From a virus: 21,101 nt of DNA. The position numbers and the translations under genes are program-made. The notes under the pieces were generated by a model that was not told where the DNA came from, did not search any database, and saw only the letters and a program-made list of their open reading frames with translations. Positions within the stretch are counted from its first letter, which is position 1, and the number at the start of each line of letters is the position of its first letter. The stretch lies in the UHGV virus genome UHGV-1793583. One strand, given 5' to 3'. Positions 2,892 to 11,985 of the stretch are shown piece after piece.

Positions 2892-3081
2892 ATGCCTTAT
2901 TGTTGCGGTAGTTATAATTTACCTGGCTGGTGTCATTTTAATGGGAGCTTTTCAGAAAGCTGTTGATAGTGACGGCATTATTTGGTTCGAGCTAGTCTTC
3001 TGGCCTTTCATTACGATATACGCATTCTGTGACGCCATGCGCGTTAACATCATGCGAGCTATTAAGGAGCGCAAGAAATGA
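2884..3081 (+). CDS. small membrane protein (65 aa)
   Basis: ATG at 2884 preceded by GGGGG; MIECLIVAVVIIYLAGVILMGAF... has two hydrophobic stretches; track start 2818 is TTG with no RBS. Confidence 0.45.
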   Translation: MIECLIVAVVIIYLAGVILMGAFQKAVDSDGIIWFELVFWPFITIYAFCDAMRVNIMRAIKERKK

Positions 3082-3260
3082 TTGAAGATGGCGTGTACGC
3101 AGCAACAGTGGTGGAAGGGTTGTTTTATCGCGTGGAAAGTGATGATATTCGCATCCGCGTTGGCGGTGGTGGGTGGGTAGAGCCAATCATTATGACTACG
3201 CGAGAAACAATTAAAATATTTCTTGATGCTGGTGAACTGGTGAAGGTTGGCGACCTATGA
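3078..3260 (+). CDS. hypothetical protein (60 aa)
   Basis: ATG at 3078 with AGGAG 9 nt upstream; ATGA overlap with previous stop. Confidence 0.5.
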   Translation: MIEDGVYAATVVEGLFYRVESDDIRIRVGGGGWVEPIIMTTRETIKIFLDAGELVKVGDL

Positions 3261-3540: not shown

Positions 3541-3741
3541 ATGTTCGACAGAATACGGGAGGCGTGCGCGTATGTGACTGGGGCCGTAACTGCTTTTTTC
3601 GGCGCGATAACCATCAATGATATTGCCGTCTTTGTGGGTATCTTATCAACCATAGGCACATTTGCCGTTAATTATTACTTCAAATCACAGGAGAACAAGC
3701 GAGCGCAAGAGGAACACGACGCGCGAATGGGGAATAAGTAA
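3541..3741 (+). CDS. holin, two-TMD pinholin-like (66 aa)
   Basis: GGAGGT RBS; two hydrophobic segments and charged C-terminus; directly precedes SAR endolysin. Confidence 0.75.
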   Translation: MFDRIREACAYVTGAVTAFFGAITINDIAVFVGILSTIGTFAVNYYFKSQENKRAQEEHDARMGNK

Positions 3742-4233
3742 ATGATTAGCCAATCGCTGAAAAACAAGATTGTTGCGGCGGCGGCTGGTGGTGCAATCGC
3801 TATTGCGGCTGTAATGATTAAGCAATTAGAGGGCGTGGAATACGATCCTTATCGTGATGTTGTTGGTGTATGGACTGTTTGCTACGGTCACACCGGAAAA
3901 GACATCATGCTTGGGAAGACTTACACGCAATCAGAATGCGATGCTTTGTTAAATAAAGATCTACACAAGACCGCAAAAGCGATTGACCCATATATTAAAG
4001 TCGAAATATCAGATTTTACCCGCGCAGCACTTTATTCATTCGCCTATAACGTAGGCGCAACCAACTTCAAAACATCAACCTTATTGAAGCTACTCAATGA
4101 CGGCAAGAAATCAGAAGCGTGCGCACAGCTTAAACGCTGGGTATACGCTGGCGGTAAGAAGTGGCATGGTCTGGTTAACCGCCGCGAGGTTGAATATGCC
4201 GTTTGCGAATGGGGTGAGAAATGGACAAGGTGA
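3742..4233 (+). CDS. SAR endolysin, T4/P21-type lysozyme (GH24-like), 163 aa
   Basis: N-terminal Ala/Gly-rich signal-anchor-release segment ([16 protein letters not shown]); E-x8-D-x5-T catalytic spacing in [24 protein letters not shown]; resembles phage 21 R as recalled. Confidence 0.85.
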
Positions 4234-4691
4234 AGACGTTAATCATCGCCGCTATCGTTTGTGTCGTTGTTGGGCTTGTTGCCGCGCTTAGTCACTGCCA
4301 GTCAGTGATAAACACAATGCAAAGCGAGCTAACTACTACGCAGGGCGCACTAAAAACAGCAAGTAACACTATTCAGCAGATGAAGGAGCGAAACGCCGAG
4401 CTGTCAAAACTTGATAAGAGGTATCACGATGAAATTAAAGCTATCAGATCTGACATTGCCGATCTGCGCACTGGTATTGATAACGGCACTATCCGGCTGC
4501 GCGTCAACGCAACGCCCGTGCGAGTGTCTGACCCCACCGGATCCGCCAGCGCCATTGATGGAGCCACCTGTAGACTCACTCCCGACGCTGAATCAGCTTA
4601 TCTATCCCTCAGAGAACAACTAAAAACGAAAGACGCTCAGATCACTGGGTTACAGGACTACATCAAAACGCAGTGCTTACGCAAAGAATAA
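4221..4691 (+). CDS. Rz: Rz-like i-spanin (156 aa)
   Basis: N-terminal TM helix then long charged helical periplasmic domain; overlaps endolysin stop; contains embedded Rz1 frame. Confidence 0.8.
4429..4623 (+). CDS. Rz1: Rz1-like o-spanin lipoprotein, embedded in Rz in +1 frame (64 aa precursor)
   Basis: ATG 4429 with AAGAGG 8 nt upstream; signal peptide with lipobox LSGC; proline-rich mature part [12 protein letters not shown]. Confidence 0.75.
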   Translation: MKLKLSDLTLPICALVLITALSGCASTQRPCECLTPPDPPAPLMEPPVDSLPTLNQLIYPSENN

Positions 4692-4970
4692 CAGCGCGTG
4701 GACGTGTCGCCGTTTCCGCCAGCCAGCCATAACCGGGCCAATCCTTCCCGCGAGCGGCGGCGGAAAAGTCAAAAACACGTAATACCGGGTAAACAACCTC
4801 ATTAACAGGTCAGGCGCTACCTGGGTAGAAGAAAGCGCCATTATACAGTTTTATAAAATTCTGAAAACGGTACTCATGCAGCGCCGTTTTTAGTGTTTTA
4901 TAGCTGTTTTCACTCCCTGCGGTGTCCAGTTTTGCGGGGGTTATATTTTTCAGGATAGAGGAATATTCTG

Positions 4971-5555
4971 ATGGCTAAGGCTAAAGGCATCAAGTTGCCT
5001 CAATTCAAAGTTCCGCTCTTTGAGCATACAACTGTTTTCTTCTGCCCGACCCGCGACATGTTTTATGAATTTTGCGAGAAGGCAGGGATTCCGATCGAAC
5101 CTGATTTCGAACTGGCAGGCGGCCTGACATTAACCTGCACGGGTGAGAAAGGCGGTAACTTCTACGTGATCGCAGTATTCGATAATGAGTTAGGAACGCT
5201 GGTACATGAATGCGCCCACACTACGTTCCACGTTTTAAGCGATGTAGGCGTCGTGGCAACCACTGATCCAACTCACCCGGCAAACGAGACTTATGCTTAC
5301 ATGGTAGGCCGCATCTTTGACGCATTCTTCCCGATCCTTGCTGAATCAAACGAAGCACAGGTTGCAGCAATGCAGGCGGCTGAAGTCGTTGAGCAGGCAT
5401 TGGAGCAGGCAGAACAGGCGACTAAATCAGCAGAACAGGCAGTAGAACAGACAGAGGAGCAGAAAGAAGAGAAAAAACCAGCTAAGAAAGGCAAACGTAA
5501 GCCTAAAGCAAAAGAAGCGCTTGTACCGCGCGTGATGAGCTTTAAACGGGGGTGA
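4971..5555 (+). CDS. HExxH-motif protein (putative zinc-metallopeptidase-like) with Glu/Gln/Ala helical linker and Lys-rich tail, 194 aa
   Basis: Motif LVHECAHTTFH; C-terminus KKPAKKGKRKPKAKE; GGATAGAGGA RBS; family not identifiable by eye. Confidence 0.6.
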   Translation: MAKAKGIKLPQFKVPLFEHTTVFFCPTRDMFYEFCEKAGIPIEPDFELAGGLTLTCTGEKGGNFYVIAVFDNELGTLVHECAHTTFHVLSDVGVVATTDPTHPANETYAYMVGRIFDAFFPILAESNEAQVAAMQAAEVVEQALEQAEQATKSAEQAVEQTEEQKEEKKPAKKGKRKPKAKEALVPRVMSFKRG

Positions 5556-5557
5556 TT

Positions 5558-5626
5558 ATGGTTACTTTCCTGTTAGGTTTATTTATCGGAATGGCTGCGG
5601 CTGTAATATTGCTGGTTGGTGAATAA
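5558..5626 (+). CDS. hydrophobic micropeptide 1 (22 aa, MVTFLLGLFIGMAAAVILLVGE)
   Basis: ATG 3 nt after upstream stop, GGGGGTGA RBS; single predicted TM helix. Confidence 0.4.
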   Translation: MVTFLLGLFIGMAAAVILLVGE

Positions 5627-5630
5627 TGTT

Positions 5631-5747
5631 ATGGATGATTATATCATTGCCGGATTGATCGGCATTTCTGTATATCTGGTGGGTTTTATTGCAGTTGCAC
5701 TAATAAACGCAAAGATCAAGCGCTGGGTGGAGGGGCAAGATGATTGA
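5631..5747 (+). CDS. hydrophobic micropeptide 2 (38 aa, MDDYIIAGLIGISVYLVGFIAVALINAKIKRWVEGQDD)
   Basis: ATG 5 nt after previous stop; single TM helix, charged C-terminus. Confidence 0.4.
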   Translation: MDDYIIAGLIGISVYLVGFIAVALINAKIKRWVEGQDD

Positions 5748-5814
5748 CCCACTCGTTATCCTTTCTTTATGCGTCGCTGTATGGCTGGCGATCATGATAT
5801 TCATTGAAAGCTGA
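5740..5814 (+). CDS. hydrophobic micropeptide 3 (24 aa, MIDPLVILSLCVAVWLAIMIFIES)
   Basis: GGAGGGG 6 nt upstream; ATGATTGA overlap with previous ORF. Confidence 0.4.
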   Translation: MIDPLVILSLCVAVWLAIMIFIES

Positions 5815-5825
5815 AGGTATTCACC

Positions 5826-5900
5826 ATGAATATTTACGATCTCATCTGGTGGTCAGTGGTCGCCGTCATTATCTATTTCTGGTGGAAGAATGTTGTATAG
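5826..5900 (+). CDS. hydrophobic micropeptide 4 (24 aa, MNIYDLIWWSVVAVIIYFWWKNVV)
   Basis: GAAGG 7 nt upstream of ATG; single TM helix. Confidence 0.4.
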   Translation: MNIYDLIWWSVVAVIIYFWWKNVV

Positions 5901-5908
5901 GTGACGGC

Positions 5909-6013
5909 ATGGATATATTCGAATTACTGGCGATTATGTGCGGAATGATGCTAGGCGTTGTCGCCATAATCATAATCATAATCATCGGCCTTGTTATGGG
6001 TAGCATCAAATGA
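5909..6013 (+). CDS. hydrophobic micropeptide 5 (34 aa, MDIFELLAIMCGMMLGVVAIIIIIIIGLVMGSIK)
   Basis: AGGTGA upstream of ATG 5909; contains (ATAATC)x3 repeat encoding the Ile run; track ORF 5804..6013 is the non-ATG extension. Confidence 0.4.
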   Translation: MDIFELLAIMCGMMLGVVAIIIIIIIGLVMGSIK

Positions 6014-6090
6014 ACGCATACGAAATGCTATTGCTGGTGGCTGTTATTACAGTTATTGCCGTTGATTTCTATCGAGGGTTTAAAAGATGA
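6010..6090 (+). CDS. hydrophobic micropeptide 6 (26 aa, MNAYEMLLLVAVITVIAVDFYRGFKR)
   Basis: ATGA start/stop overlap with micropeptide 5. Confidence 0.4.
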   Translation: MNAYEMLLLVAVITVIAVDFYRGFKR

Positions 6091-6158
6091 GAGAAGCAGA
6101 CTTCTTTTGCATGATTATAGTGATTGTCATCGTTGCGGTGCTTTTAAGTGTTAACTGA
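6087..6158 (+). CDS. hydrophobic micropeptide 7 (23 aa, MREADFFCMIIVIVIVAVLLSVN)
   Basis: ATGA start/stop overlap with micropeptide 6. Confidence 0.4.
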   Translation: MREADFFCMIIVIVIVAVLLSVN

Positions 6159-6174
6159 ATCGCAGGAGTTAAAA

Positions 6175-6243
6175 ATGAAATGGCTTGATTTCTTTTTCCT
6201 GATTGTCGCAATTGTTCTAACCATGACCGCGCTGACTCAATAG
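6175..6243 (+). CDS. hydrophobic micropeptide 8 (22 aa, MKWLDFFFLIVAIVLTMTALTQ)
   Basis: AGGAG 7 nt upstream of ATG 6175. Confidence 0.4.
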   Translation: MKWLDFFFLIVAIVLTMTALTQ

Positions 6244-6311
6244 GTTGTGGCTTGGACGCGCATTTTATGCGCTTCCTAAATTCATCAAGTCAAATAAAGT
6301 GGATGGTAACG

Positions 6312-6503
6312 ATGAAAGAGCTATTCGACTTTCTGGAAACGGTAACATACTGCGCAACATTAATTGCGTGTTTATATATTCTGTGCAAATGGTTTTTGAG
6401 AGGTGAAATATGGCCCGCACTAAAAAGGCAAAAGCTGACGATAAAAAGCCAGCAGCTAAAAAGGTTGGCCGTCCGCATGGTTATACCGAAGAAAAGGCAT
6501 TAG
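6312..6503 (+). CDS. possible ninth membrane micropeptide (MKELFDFLETVTYCATLIACLYILCKWFL...); 3' part overlaps terS
   Basis: Same N-terminal pattern as the array members; frame runs 94 nt into terS, so true extent uncertain. Confidence 0.25.
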   Translation: MKELFDFLETVTYCATLIACLYILCKWFLRGEIWPALKRQKLTIKSQQLKRLAVRMVIPKKRH

Positions 6504-6895
6504 AGATCTGTGAGCTGGTGGCGGACGGTCAAAGTATTAACAGGATTTCGAAGATGCCTGATATGCCTGCGCGTTCAACAATCCTTAAATGGTTCAAAGA
6601 CGTGCCAGAGTTCTCGGACATGTACATACGCGCGAAAGAGATCGGTTTTGAGGTATTGGCTGATGAGATTATCGACATAGCTGACGCAGCGGAGAACACC
6701 GATAAAGACCAATGCCGCCGCCATCAATTGATGATTGAAACCCGTAAATGGCTATTGGCAAAACTGCAACCGCGTAAGTATGGCGAACGCGTTACGCAGG
6801 AAATCGTAGGCAACAGGGAAGAAGCACCAGTACAGGTAGAAGTCACAAAAGAAGAGATTGCCCGCATCGTTCAGGAGGTAGAAGATGAGGTGTGA
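6410..6895 (+). CDS. terS: terminase small subunit (161 aa)
   Basis: Strong RBS GAGAGGTGA; basic N-terminus, HTH-like segment, acidic C-terminus; directly precedes and overlaps terL start. Confidence 0.75.
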   Translation: MARTKKAKADDKKPAAKKVGRPHGYTEEKALEICELVADGQSINRISKMPDMPARSTILKWFKDVPEFSDMYIRAKEIGFEVLADEIIDIADAAENTDKDQCRRHQLMIETRKWLLAKLQPRKYGERVTQEIVGNREEAPVQVEVTKEEIARIVQEVEDEV

Positions 6896-6897
6896 TT

Positions 6898-8376
6898 ATG
6901 CTGACAATCAAAGAACGAGTTATTCAGTCCAAATGTGAAAACGATGGCCTGTTTTTCAATCGCTACTTCTATAAGCAAGCGAACGGAACGAAGATGTTAA
7001 TCTCAGGCCATCACTTAGCTATCCGCGACGCACTGCAACGCGTTGTCAATGGTGAGATAACCCGACTCATCATTAACATCCCTCCAGGGTACGGCAAAAC
7101 CATGATCGCAACTATCAACATGATGGCGCGGTCACTCGCAATAAATCCCCGCACACGATTCCTTCATGTCTCCTATTCCAACAACCTGGCGTTACTCAAT
7201 TCCTCGACCGTAAGAAACATGATCTGTACGCCTGAATATCAGGCAATGTGGCCCATGAGGATCCGCAACGATGCAAACTCAAAATCAATGTGGTGGACTG
7301 AATACGGTGGCGGCGTGTATGCAACGTCATCGCTTGGCCAGGTTACAGGGTTCCGCGCGGGGTATATGGAACCAGGATTTAACGGCGCGTTAATCATCGA
7401 CGACCCATTAAAACCCGCTGACGCTTACTCTGACGTGGTGAGAAAGCAGGTTAACACAAACTATAACGACACGCTTGCTTCACGTCTGGCAGTGCAAACA
7501 ACGCCTGTTATCGTCATCATGCAGCGCATCCACTACGATGATTTGTCCGGCTACCTGCTACGCGGTGGGAGCGGTGAAAAGTGGTATCACCTTAACCTGC
7601 CAGTGAAAATCGACAATAGCGTTGACTACCGGGATTTGTACCCTGAAAACGAGTTCGCTATCCCCATTCCTCATAACCTGCCAGATGGCTGGCTATGGCC
7701 TAAAAAGCACAATGACGCCCATGAAGCTGGGCTGAAAGCACACAGACGGTCATTTGAGGCCCAGTACATGCAGCGCCCGCGTAAATTCGACGAAGAGGGT
7801 GCGTTGTGGACAGAGGCGATGATTACCGCCGCGCACCGGATGCAGATAACGCAGGAGAAAATCCGCACTGTGATAGCCATCGACCCGGCGACAACGTCAT
7901 CTGATGAGTCGGACGAAACGGGGATCATGGCGTGTTCCGCCTATGGTGGCGGCAAGAATGCTCAGTATTCTGTTGATGGTGACTACTCGGGCCGCATGTC
8001 ACCTAATGACTGGGCGCAAGCATCAATGAACGCCTACAACATCCATGAAGCTGACGCGATAGTCATCGAAACCAACCAGGGCGGCGAAATGGCAGAGGCC
8101 ACTTTGCGTAATGCCGGATTCAAAGGCCGCATTGTTAAGGTGCACGCAAGTAAAGGTAAGTTCGCCCGTGCTGAACCAATATCGGCACTGTATGCACAAG
8201 GAAGGGTGGCACACACTGGTGAGCTATACACGCTGGAAAATCAAATGATGGAATACGTGCCAGCCACCGCCAAAAAATCCCCTGACCGTATGGATGCGAT
8301 GGTATGGGGTATCACCGAATTAAGCCAGCCACAGGCAATGGGCCTCATGTTACCGAAGCGCCTGCGCGGATTTTAA
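6898..8376 (+). CDS. terL: terminase large subunit (492 aa)
   Basis: Walker A PPGYGKT, Walker B-like LIIDDP, nuclease-type acidic residues (VIAIDPA, DETGIMA); GAGGTG RBS 5 nt before ATG 6898. Confidence 0.9.
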   Translation: MLTIKERVIQSKCENDGLFFNRYFYKQANGTKMLISGHHLAIRDALQRVVNGEITRLIINIPPGYGKTMIATINMMARSLAINPRTRFLHVSYSNNLALLNSSTVRNMICTPEYQAMWPMRIRNDANSKSMWWTEYGGGVYATSSLGQVTGFRAGYMEPGFNGALIIDDPLKPADAYSDVVRKQVNTNYNDTLASRLAVQTTPVIVIMQRIHYDDLSGYLLRGGSGEKWYHLNLPVKIDNSVDYRDLYPENEFAIPIPHNLPDGWLWPKKHNDAHEAGLKAHRRSFEAQYMQRPRKFDEEGALWTEAMITAAHRMQITQEKIRTVIAIDPATTSSDESDETGIMACSAYGGGKNAQYSVDGDYSGRMSPNDWAQASMNAYNIHEADAIVIETNQGGEMAEATLRNAGFKGRIVKVHASKGKFARAEPISALYAQGRVAHTGELYTLENQMMEYVPATAKKSPDRMDAMVWGITELSQPQAMGLMLPKRLRGF

Positions 8377-9825: not shown

Positions 9826-10711
9826 CACCGAAGACCCGACCATGACAGGGAAGTTACGGTCGGGAGCTATCAAGCGTTTTAAAGCCTGCCTGAAGAAAGT
9901 TGCGGATCCGTATATTGCCATACTGGACAGAATACAATATACCCTGGCTGTTAATAAGAAATACACCTTTCAGATCTACATTGACGAATTGCATGATTTG
10001 CTGGAAGACGCCAGCGACATGATTGATGAAATATTCGAGTTAACAGACCCGGAAAACTTCTGGTTCTGGCAGAATTACGTGAAAGTGGCATATCAGCGCG
10101 GCACTTCTCAGGAATATGCCAACCTCGCTAACCAGTCAGTCACATATTCCAGAGCTTACCCTGAAGTGTCAGCGGTATTAACCAGTCAGACATATCGCAC
10201 GCGCCTTGCCCTGGTGCGTACCCGTGTATTTGAAGAGATGCGCGGGCTGACCGCACAGATCAAGAAGGATATGGCCCGCCGATTAACCGAAGGCATGGCC
10301 CGTGGCTTAAACCCACTCGAAATAGCGCGCACATTGCAGCAGGAAACGCAATTGCCGCTATACAGGTGCAAACGTATTGCCCGTACTGAAATATGCACAG
10401 CGTTGCGCACAGCGCGTATGGATGAGGCAGAGGCCGCATCGGATGAGCTTAATTTGCGCACTATGCAGATGCACATTTCGGCATTGTCACCGACTACCAG
10501 GTTATCACACGCGCAGCGGCACGGAAAAACGTACACCATAGACGAGCAGCGCGAATGGTGGAGTAAATCCCCCAATTCAATTAACTGCAAATGTAGCACA
10601 ATTACCGTGCTGGTGGATGAATCTGGTAACATATTAAACAAAAGAATCCTTGAGCGAGCGCAAGAAAATTACAAAGTTGCGCACGCTAAATATGGCGAAG
10701 ATTGGGAGTAA
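9767..10711 (+). CDS. head morphogenesis protein, Mu F-like / SPP1 gp7-like (314 aa)
   Basis: Follows portal; contains RIARTE motif (CKRIARTEICTALRTARMDEAEA) recalled as typical of Mu F-like proteins; start overlaps portal 3' end by 59 nt, uncertain. Confidence 0.7.
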   Translation: MMKVKKIIRRIPPAAIMPSNTEDPTMTGKLRSGAIKRFKACLKKVADPYIAILDRIQYTLAVNKKYTFQIYIDELHDLLEDASDMIDEIFELTDPENFWFWQNYVKVAYQRGTSQEYANLANQSVTYSRAYPEVSAVLTSQTYRTRLALVRTRVFEEMRGLTAQIKKDMARRLTEGMARGLNPLEIARTLQQETQLPLYRCKRIARTEICTALRTARMDEAEAASDELNLRTMQMHISALSPTTRLSHAQRHGKTYTIDEQREWWSKSPNSINCKCSTITVLVDESGNILNKRILERAQENYKVAHAKYGEDWE

Positions 10712-10716
10712 AAACC

Positions 10717-11985
10717 GTGAATAAAGAACTGATTCAGGTTAATACCAAATTAACCGCTAATACCATCCGCAGGGAAACATATAACGGGCGAGAACACATC
10801 GTGGTCCCGTCTTATACGTTGCCCTTCAATATCGTTATGAATCGGGAATATTACCCGGAAGCCGAAATCATTGCTAATTATCAATCTCTGGAAGGTACGC
10901 TTGCACCGCTGGGCCATCCTACGGTTAACGGTGAATTTGTTTCCGCATTTAGCCCTGAAGGTCTGAATATTGGCTTTTGTGGCGCATGGAACAGGAATGT
11001 TGAATTACGCGGCAACCGTGTTTATGTGGAAAAATGGGTGGATGTTGAAACAGCCAGCCATTCAGAACAGGGGCGCGAATTATTAAGCCGACTCGAAGCA
11101 CTGGAAAAAGGCGAAAGCAAAGATCCGATCTGGTCATCTGTTGCCGTATATCGCCAGCGTATGCCAGCCACCGAAGAGATGAAAGCGCAGGGCGCTGACA
11201 GCGTTGTCAAAATCATGTCAATTGACCATGACGCCATCTTACTACATGAACCGCCAGCCGCATCGCCAGAACAGGGCGTTGGCCTGATGGTTAACACTGA
11301 CCAGGCTAAGCCGTTAATGGCGGTGGCAATGAAAGAAAATAGCTATCGCACGCTTGAAAAACAATTGGAAGAAGCTGCGCGTAAACTGTTCCCAGATGCA
11401 GATTATGTCTATGTCGTGGACTTCACTGATAAAGAAGTGACCATTGCCACTAATGCCGAAAGTGCTCAAGTTTGCACGTATGAAAAACAGGCTGATAAAA
11501 TAATTCTCAATAATGGCGAGCTTGCAACCAATGAGGAAAGTAAATCATGGTTCGCTCAGTTCGCTGAACACCTATCCAGTCTTTTCTCACTAAGTGAAAA
11601 AATTAAGGCCAATAAATCGGAGGACGATCCCATGCCTTTGACCAAAGAAGAACGCGCCGAACTGGTAAAAGAAATTAACGAAAGTATTACCGCTAATATG
11701 GCTAATGCAATCGCTGAAGCACTTAAACCAGTACAAGCAAGCGTTGAAGAATTACAGACCAATCAGAAAGCGATTAAAGAAGAGATCGCAGCAAACGCAA
11801 ATAAAGAAGAAGCAGAAAAACGCGCCGCAGTAGCAAAAGTACACGGCGAAATTGTTGCTAACGCATTAAGTGGTGAAGCGTTAGAAGCAATGTTTAAATC
11901 CCTGGGCAAAGCCGCACCGATGGCAACCAACGCAGCAAGCGAAGGTAAAAAAGGCGAAGTCCCGGACTTTAACACCTATTTTTAA
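10717..11985 (+). CDS. putative scaffolding protein (422 aa)
   Basis: Sits between head morphogenesis and capsid genes; C-terminal third is Ala/Glu/Lys-rich helical repeat; GTG 10717 chosen 8 nt after GGGAG. Confidence 0.55.
   Translation: MNKELIQVNTKLTANTIRRETYNGREHIVVPSYTLPFNIVMNREYYPEAEIIANYQSLEGTLAPLGHPTVNGEFVSAFSPEGLNIGFCGAWNRNVELRGNRVYVEKWVDVETASHSEQGRELLSRLEALEKGESKDPIWSSVAVYRQRMPATEEMKAQGADSVVKIMSIDHDAILLHEPPAASPEQGVGLMVNTDQAKPLMAVAMKENSYRTLEKQLEEAARKLFPDADYVYVVDFTDKEVTIATNAESAQVCTYEKQADKIILNNGELATNEESKSWFAQFAEHLSSLFSLSEKIKANKSEDDPMPLTKEERAELVKEINESITANMANAIAEALKPVQASVEELQTNQKAIKEEIAANANKEEAEKRAAVAKVHGEIVANALSGEALEAMFKSLGKAAPMATNAASEGKKGEVPDFNTYF

Follow-up and report, generated by a model that had tools for sequence, protein, structure and literature searches.

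A zincin-like protein with a polybasic tail encoded between the lysis and packaging genes of an mEp021-like phage genome

Does the HExxH motif of a small protein encoded between the lysis genes and the packaging module of a phage genome mark a real metal site, and what would a temperate phage use such a protein for? We studied this question in the virus genome UHGV-1793583, of which a stretch of 21,101 nucleotides (21.1 kb) formed the window of our analyses. A sequence-only reading of the window had drawn attention to a 194-residue open reading frame (ORF) containing LVHECAHTTFH and a Lys-rich tail, and we found the ORF exactly as claimed at 4971–5555 on the plus strand. The interpretation we favor, with confidence evenly divided for and against, is a late, non-structural accessory peptidase of the gluzincin type that carries a lineage-specific tether. 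The gene and its candidate metal site comprise:

4971–5555, + strand: complete coding sequence with an ATG start, 194 amino acids (aa), 21.4 kDa, isoelectric point (pI) 5.5; orthologue of mEp021 gp49
4958–4962, + strand: Shine–Dalgarno sequence GAGGA, 8 nt 5' of the ATG, from direct reading of the sequence
4971–5342, + strand: N-terminal domain, residues 1–124, predicted minimal zincin-like (gluzincin-type), PHROG 1365; from a profile match and AlphaFold2 (AF2)
5205–5219, + strand: HExxH codons, H79-E80-C81-A82-H83, on predicted helix 74–91; from conservation
5286–5288, + strand: codon of E106 (NETYAY, E-x-x-A), candidate third metal ligand; from an invariant column and its spacing

The motif LVHECAHTTFH spans residues 77–87, with HECAH at residues 79–83. 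Residues 1–131 matched phrog_1365, a family with no annotated function, at E = 3e-31, and an exhaustive profile search over 1.84 billion representatives recovered 227 homologue clusters at E ≤ 1e-3. The homologues were nearly all stand-alone, single-domain phage proteins of ~105–140 aa; among the 150 representatives listed, nearly all were single-domain proteins of 67–190 aa, and two giant proteins matched over a short stretch only. HExxH was kept in 147 of these 150; of the other three, two are disrupted and one has HKxxH instead. The absence of the motif from homologs, which the sequence-only reading had listed as grounds against itself, was thus not seen. By a rough estimate, HExxH occurs by chance in ~0.5% of proteins of 194 aa, and the conservation across the family, set against this random expectation, argues that the motif is not a chance occurrence. 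In a 61-sequence alignment with members down to 20% identity with the window protein, the sole invariant columns were G51, H79, E80, H83 and E106, and H87 varied. E106 followed the second His by 19–23 residues across the family (23 in the window protein), in a segment with the family consensus NETFCY. Judged from these sequences, the family is a widespread, uncharacterized group of very small zinc-protease-like phage proteins.

The “glutamate helix” of gluzincins carries the motif (E,H)xx(A,F,T,S,G) (PMC7213743), and E106-T-Y-A109 has this pattern at the start of the predicted helix 104–167; HExxH lies on a predicted α-helix (residues 74–91), again as expected of a gluzincin. With the 61-sequence alignment, AF2 gave a model with a predicted local distance difference test score (pLDDT) of 91.7 and a predicted template modeling score of 0.77, against a pLDDT of 64 with a shallow alignment. 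The model has strands at 11–13, 21–25, 51–57 and 63–69 and helices at 28–38, 44–48 and 74–91, the last bearing HExxH and followed by a loop and the helix 104–167 that starts with E106; disorder is predicted for the final 27 residues (pLDDT 64–68), and no further globular domain is present. A minimal zincin core consists of a three-stranded sheet, a flanking helix, an active-site helix and a Glu helix (PMC5512222), and the model contains the required sheet of at least three strands and the flanking helix before the active-site helix. As modeled, the fold is thus the minimal zincin (gluzincin) layout of sheet, helix, HExxH helix and Glu helix, and an HExxH placed off any metal-site scaffold, the other finding that would have told against the motif, is not what the predicted topology shows. 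The earlier description of the motif as zinc-metallopeptidase-like is borne out by the invariant HExxH, the invariant Glu 23 residues downstream and the modeled gluzincin topology, and the N-terminal domain is, in our view, very likely a true metal-site domain of the gluzincin type.

Most of the window shows 85–92% identity with temperate E. coli siphophages of the mEpimmI group, with matches to mEp010, mEp044, mEp554, mEp021, mEp515, mEp013 and MagusPhagus, and by this identity it is an mEp021-like (mEpimmI) temperate phage of E. coli. The orthologue in mEp021, gp49, shows 90% nucleotide identity with the gene at 4971–5555 and is labeled “hypothetical protein.” Among 5,426 complete E. coli genomes, 31 had the gene as a single prophage copy, labeled “hypothetical” every time.

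Beyond the N-terminal domain, the protein continues with an extension of two parts:

5343–5471, + strand: acidic Ala/Glu/Gln-rich helical spacer, residues 125–167, net charge –10; from composition and AF2
5394–5455, + strand: 21-bp tandem repeat, three copies, within the acidic spacer, encoding heptad-like EQAxEQA units; from the sequence
5472–5552, + strand: polybasic C-terminal peptide KKPAKKGKRKPKAKEALVPRVMSFKRG, residues 168–194, net charge +11, pI 11.8, predicted disordered; from conservation and AF2

The Ala/Glu/Gln-rich helical linker described from the sequence is real, forming one long predicted helix over residues 125–167 that continues the Glu helix with high confidence, and the Lys-rich stretch KKPAKKGKRKPKAKE covers residues 168–182. 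Among relatives in the IMG/VR database, the region from residue 125 measured 56, 59, 60, 66 or 70 aa, the differences falling in the acidic spacer; at the tandem repeat the relatives differed by 4, 10 or 14 residues, which suggests repeat slippage at 5394–5455. Synonymous and nonsynonymous codon differences, counted against 14 full-length homologues, stood at 405:31 in the N-terminal domain, 82:105 in the spacer and 50:5 in the last 27 residues. The spacer thus evolves fast, and the counts for the N-terminal domain and the basic tail indicate purifying selection on both. Long tails were rare in the family: besides the mEp-like lineage, P0122, a relative with 57% identity, and a few independent members have them; a divergent relative retains the terminal pattern ...PKKASKPKAKPIKEEYVPRIARYKRG.

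A variable spacer ending in a conserved peptide suggests the design of a tether, and the composition of the peptide points to a polyanion such as DNA as the partner; the nucleic-acid association proposed in the sequence-only reading is plausible for a conserved tail with a net charge of +11 over 27 aa. We scanned 2.9 million IMG/VR viral contigs with a degenerate DNA pattern for the last ten codons and the stop and found 42 sites, all 42 on a window-type protein. A targeting tag shared with other cargo was ruled out by this result. Elsewhere in the window, nothing resembled the tail beyond a weak KKPAAKK likeness in the terminase gene terS. There, the N-terminal arm (6410–6480; MARTKKAKADDKKPAAKKVGRP) resembles KKPAKKGKRKP of the basic tail with a tblastn E of ~1, a likeness that may reflect Lys-rich composition only.

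Searches for named relatives agreed with the earlier statement that the protein cannot be assigned to a named peptidase family: neither Pfam, NCBIfam nor PADLOC gave a match, and sequence and fold searches of the Protein Data Bank (PDB) returned no significant match to any solved structure or peptidase. PADLOC models had 0 matches among eight diverse family members. Matches around the motif obtained with the single sequence or the 61-sequence profile, such as RNase A and astacin, were sub-threshold or spurious. The only recurrent weak Pfam match was SprT-like, seen below threshold in 9 of the 61 members (E 0.009–0.1), and the MPTase-PolyVal model gave no match at E ≤ 1 with the window protein or at E ≤ 0.1 with the 61 members. 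One homologue, the 59%-identical P0118, carries the source label “PolyVal Metallopeptidase superfamily domain.” We extracted ArdC of plasmid R388 from NC_028464 and aligned its C-terminal domain with 80 relatives, 81 sequences in all. Comparison of the family alignment, in trimmed form, with this one by hhalign gave a probability of 72% and P = 3.5e-5, against P = 0.65 for a reversed control; when the match was extended, the backing helix and the hairpin fell in register.

The surroundings of the gene are the following:

3541–3741: holin, 66 aa, two transmembrane (TM) segments; lysis cassette
3742–4233: endolysin with an N-terminal hydrophobic segment resembling a signal-anchor-release (SAR) sequence; lysis cassette
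4221–4691: Rz; lysis cassette
4411–4623: Rz1 lipoprotein ORF embedded in Rz in the +1 frame, lipobox LSGC; lysis cassette
4851–4903, + strand: hairpin and U-run resembling an intrinsic terminator, equal to TERM_6 of mEp021; from RNA folding and the mEp021 annotation
6410–6895: terS
6892–8376: terL, with the portal and head genes beyond

The cassette at 3541–4691 is a pinholin/SAR-type system. The location between lysis genes and packaging module was as previously described, with the spanin gene 5' and terS 3' of the HExxH gene, a gap of 280 bp from Rz and one of ~850 bp to terS, and the gene order was identical in all seven sequenced relatives. The hairpin at 4851–4903 has a folding free energy of –20.7 kcal/mol (z = –5.35), with 0 of 200 shuffles as stable; an A-run flanks it, and it may be bidirectional. 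The plus strand at 4692–4970 showed no sigma-70-like promoter. The structural genes all lie 3' of the hairpin, and the late, Q-dependent transcript must therefore read through it; given this and the lack of a promoter of its own, we infer that the HExxH gene is expressed late, by read-through.

Between the HExxH gene and terS (5556–6409) runs a series of tiny ORFs that each encode a single hydrophobic segment resembling a TM helix, including one of 22 aa, MVTFLLGLFIGMAAAVILLVGE, at 5558–5626, and others of 43, 69, 31 and 83 aa. The length of this region varies, from 486 bp in mEp021 to ~850 bp in the window. No classical prohead protease or scaffold was recognized in the head module of the window. 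A 427-aa protein encoded at 10702–11985, between the MuF-like head-morphogenesis gene and the decoration and coat genes, matched PHROG 760 only and no Pfam model.

To place the family in other phages, we ran tblastn over 50,697 phage records. P22-like phages carry homologues in two slots, one between the spanin gene and terS (ST64T orf129, phage L Orf129 and epsilon34 gp70) and the other in the immI region, from sieA/hkcB to the mnt terminator (HK620 hkcC and an ORF of P22). The P22 homologue is an intact ORF of 125 aa with HECAH...NETYCY (NC_002371.2, 13849–14226, + strand), unannotated in the reference records; flanked by the sieA promoter and the mnt terminator, it is the counterpart of HK620 hkcC. 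In the Ralstonia phages Anchaing and RS-PII-1 the homologue comes after Rz, at the end of the late operon, and in Achromobacter phage vB_AxyP_19-32_Axy09 (MK962628.1, 40421–41215) Axy09_046 separates the endolysin gene from an unannotated Rz/Rz1 pair, with start and stop codons overlapping on both sides. The unannotated Rz-like ORF of Axy09 matches phrog_5151 (2671–2982 of the extracted locus), and the next “hypothetical” gene (2906–3130 of the same locus) has a lipobox and looks like Rz1. The homologue of Pseudomonas phage Kurepalu-1 lies between DNA ligase and RNA polymerase, and several N4-like phages have homologues next to their terminase genes, within stretches of small genes.

The IMG/VR loci gave counts for these placements. 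Among 74 ST64T-type loci with enough upstream sequence, a recognized lysis gene lay at most five genes upstream in 58 (median distance 911 bp), and a protein of at least 400 aa, probably terL or portal, lay at most four genes downstream in 65; this junction placement spanned many lysis and terminase types. For the Ralstonia/Achromobacter-type loci, a holin, endolysin or spanin gene was found within three genes upstream in 21 of 36, mostly directly adjoining, and two loci of this type had the homologue between terS and terL. The lysis/terminase junction also carries KilA-N, HNH, Dec, DUF2560 and PF18894 genes, and no neighbor gene is conserved with the family; the junction is a general hot spot for accessory genes. 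PF18894 PhageMetallopep (~212 aa, E = 1.6e-43) was the next gene in at least 11 of 76 ST64T-type loci, and two unrelated putative metallopeptidases are thus often found side by side before terS. The variable slots occupied by the homologues, at the lysis/terminase junction and in P22 immI by sieA, are more in keeping with an accessory role than with one in morphogenesis.

The proposal that the protein is virion-associated found no support. For mEp021, 16 virion proteins have been identified by mass spectrometry (MS), two of them encoded outside the main structural cluster and both of these upstream of the lysis region (PMC11893012). The orthologue gp49, encoded downstream of the lysis region, was not among them and is labeled “hypothetical,” as against “virion structural protein” for the MS-confirmed proteins, and the supplementary files of the same study do not mention it. 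The window protein is probably an accessory late protein and not a part of the virion.

In the interpretation we favor, H79, H83 and E106 would hold the metal and E80 would serve as general base. The mEp021-like lineage would have lengthened this catalytic module with the acidic spacer and the 27-residue polybasic peptide, and the peptide would tether the protein to a polyanion, most likely DNA or alternatively an anionic envelope surface, or to a docking partner. Late in infection, the enzyme would then cleave a protein of the host or of a competing element, and it would take no part in building the virion. We infer metal binding, proteolysis, late read-through expression, tethering by the tail and the class of substrate; the accessory rather than core nature of the gene follows from the variable genomic slots of its homologues. 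The idea that the protein targets a host defence or processes phage proteins is speculation.

Several observations weigh against this interpretation. No Pfam or NCBIfam model reached its threshold with the window protein, in scans of the 61 members or with the 61-sequence profile, and the match to ArdC was confident only over ~19 columns around HExxH. The proposed geometry of the H79/H83/E106 site follows from the order of the modeled elements, not from coordinates. The basic tail is missing from most family members, and tethering to DNA or another polyanion can therefore not be a family-wide mechanism. The protease activity of ArdC is dispensable for its known anti-restriction phenotype (PMC7213743), and a conserved site thus need not mean a proteolytic role. 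Gel-band MS can miss low-copy virion proteins, and the recurrent position by the lysis cassette may reflect a lysis-linked role instead.

Such a lysis-linked role would make the protein an accessory peptidase working with the holin, endolysin and spanin set, trimming an envelope or lysis-regulating protein, for example, or released at lysis onto cell-surface and debris proteins, with its polycationic tail binding lipopolysaccharide or the anionic envelope. Homologues follow spanin genes directly in unrelated phages (mEp, Ralstonia Anchaing and RS-PII-1), lysis genes lie near upstream in the majority of the ST64T-type and Ralstonia/Achromobacter-type loci counted above, and the Axy09 homologue sits inside the cassette with overlapping codons. 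The window protein, however, has no signal peptide, lipobox or TM segment, and in pinholin systems a folded cytoplasmic protein cannot reach the periplasm before lysis, which leaves it no pre-lysis route past a small-holin/SAR-endolysin cassette. Some homologues, moreover, are found apart from lysis genes (P22/HK620 immI, Kurepalu-1, between terS and terL, N4-like runs), and the lysis/terminase boundary hosts many unrelated accessory genes. We regard a lysis-linked role, the chief rival of the favored interpretation, as unlikely. By a further suggestion, the family could be an unrecognized class of late or lysis-cassette gene in which a minimal zinc protease is deployed at the end of infection. 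In one form, it could be a DNA-tethered protease like Spartan or ArdC that strips host or defense proteins off phage DNA at packaging, which would account for the terminase neighborhood and the polybasic tail of the mEp lineage; in the other, a protease released or activated at lysis could act on envelope or receptor proteins, as would fit the position after the spanin gene and that between endolysin and Rz in Axy09. We hold this suggestion to be decidedly doubtful.

The site could also bind metal in a protein that is not a peptidase, be it another hydrolase, an oxygenase or a binding or adaptor protein whose site is dispensable. Two homologues have weak matches to TIGR04267 “aKG-HExxH-type peptide beta-hydroxylase,” solved peptidases gave no significant fold match, and the metalloprotease site of ArdC is unneeded for anti-restriction (PMC7213743). 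The TIGR04267 matches, though, reach 16 bits against a cut-off of 40 and cover essentially the motif region, the order of the secondary-structure elements fits the zincin core, and E80 varies no more than the metal ligands do, the signature of a hydrolytic zincin; a non-peptidase role appears quite improbable. A protease of the virion or of morphogenesis, packaged with its tail on the head DNA or processing head or ejection proteins, would suit a gene immediately upstream of the packaging and head module in a window without a recognized prohead protease; the P22/HK620 homologue comes after the ejection-protein genes 20 and 16, and the metallopeptidases of polyvalent proteins have been proposed to process packaged proteins (PMC5512222). 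Against this stand the absence of gp49 from the identified mEp021 virion proteins, the variable accessory slots, the absence of the family from many related phages, and the tail peptide, which, found on no other IMG/VR protein, is not a shared capsid-targeting tag. Established P22 genetics adds that P22 heads assemble without proteolysis and that the immI region of P22 is dispensable. A virion or morphogenetic protease is, in our judgment, very improbable.

A phage-encoded domain like that of a zincin metallopeptidase is of a known kind, and one homologue is already so labeled. Literature searches on hkcC, phage metalloproteases in anti-defense and metallopeptidases of lysis cassettes found no characterization of the family and no description of the extension by an acidic spacer and basic peptide or of its habit of occupying the lysis junction. 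Should the protein prove to be an active protease, it would provide a zincin scaffold of very small size, easy to express and common among temperate enterobacterial phages, and P22, the best studied of these, has an intact unannotated copy. The repeated placement at the lysis/packaging boundary is a concrete and testable lead; the gene could turn out to encode a dedicated late-operon protease that attacks proteins of the host or of rivals, to be a new accessory of lysis, or to be dispensable. Some 230 “hypothetical” clusters (at 50% identity) could be relabeled “zincin-like metallopeptidase domain protein.”

How does the late accessory peptidase that we favor compare with known systems? Four classes were considered and set aside. 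For the repressor-cleaving proteases ImmA/IrrE (Peptidase_M78), only one of the 61 members matched (E 0.099), and the neighbors are lysis and terminase genes with no repressor. A prohead protease, as a core product of the head module with a serine or herpesvirus-type fold, does not suit a gene that lies outside the portal-to-coat block, occupies variable accessory slots elsewhere, is unseen in virions and has a zincin-type motif, and a known anti-phage defense protein was rejected on the null PADLOC result for the eight members. PF18894 PhageMetallopep (~210 aa) is likewise an uncharacterized HExxH protein found in temperate enterobacterial phages at the same lysis/terminase junction; kinship was rejected, as no family member matched it and hhalign gave 1.3%, similar to the reversed control.

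The minigluzincins proabylysin and projannalysin, which Lopez-Pelegrin and coworkers reportedly described in 2013, are said to be minimal soluble gluzincin scaffolds of ~100–110 aa. They are archaeal and bacterial relatives of the M48/M56 membrane proteases, and we know of no link to phages. By that description they resemble the family in size, in standing alone and in combining a small sheet, a backing helix, an HExxH helix and a Glu helix; they were not retrieved by PDB sequence or fold searches with the family.

The SprT-like proteins Spartan and Wss1 (PF10263) share a small HExxH core, and a DNA-tethered, DNA-activated protease parallels a zincin with a polybasic tail. The third metal ligand of Spartan is a His and not a Glu (PMC7213743), whereas H87 varies and E106 is invariant here, and the Zn-binding subdomain is lacking. 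Membership in SprT-like/Spartan was rejected, as the window protein has no PF10263 match and hhalign against E. coli SprT (YggI) gave a probability of 9%.

ArdC of R388 contains, as its C-terminal domain, the metallopeptidase (MPTase) found in polyvalent proteins of plasmids and phages (Iyer et al. 2017, PMC5512222; Gonzalez-Montes et al. 2020, PMC7213743). The differences are a ~20-residue insert between the two helices of ArdC and the context of the domain: polyvalent-protein MPTases are parts of large multi-domain effectors, whereas the family consists of stand-alone proteins of ~105–140 aa and by this criterion falls outside that class. Polyvalent proteins are also delivered with the DNA, whereas a window-type protein is unreported in the virion and is not known to travel with DNA. 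The likeness lies in the gluzincin HExxH helix followed by a Glu helix, in the three-stranded sheet with a preceding helix and in being encoded by mobile elements, and MPTase-PolyVal/ArdC gave the best profile–profile match of those tested. The protease domain of ArdC is joined to a DNA-binding module, which the basic tail of the window protein might parallel. On these sequence comparisons, the protein is a member of the zincin superfamily that is closest, among the relatives tested, to the ArdC-type MPTases and belongs to a distinct, uncurated family.

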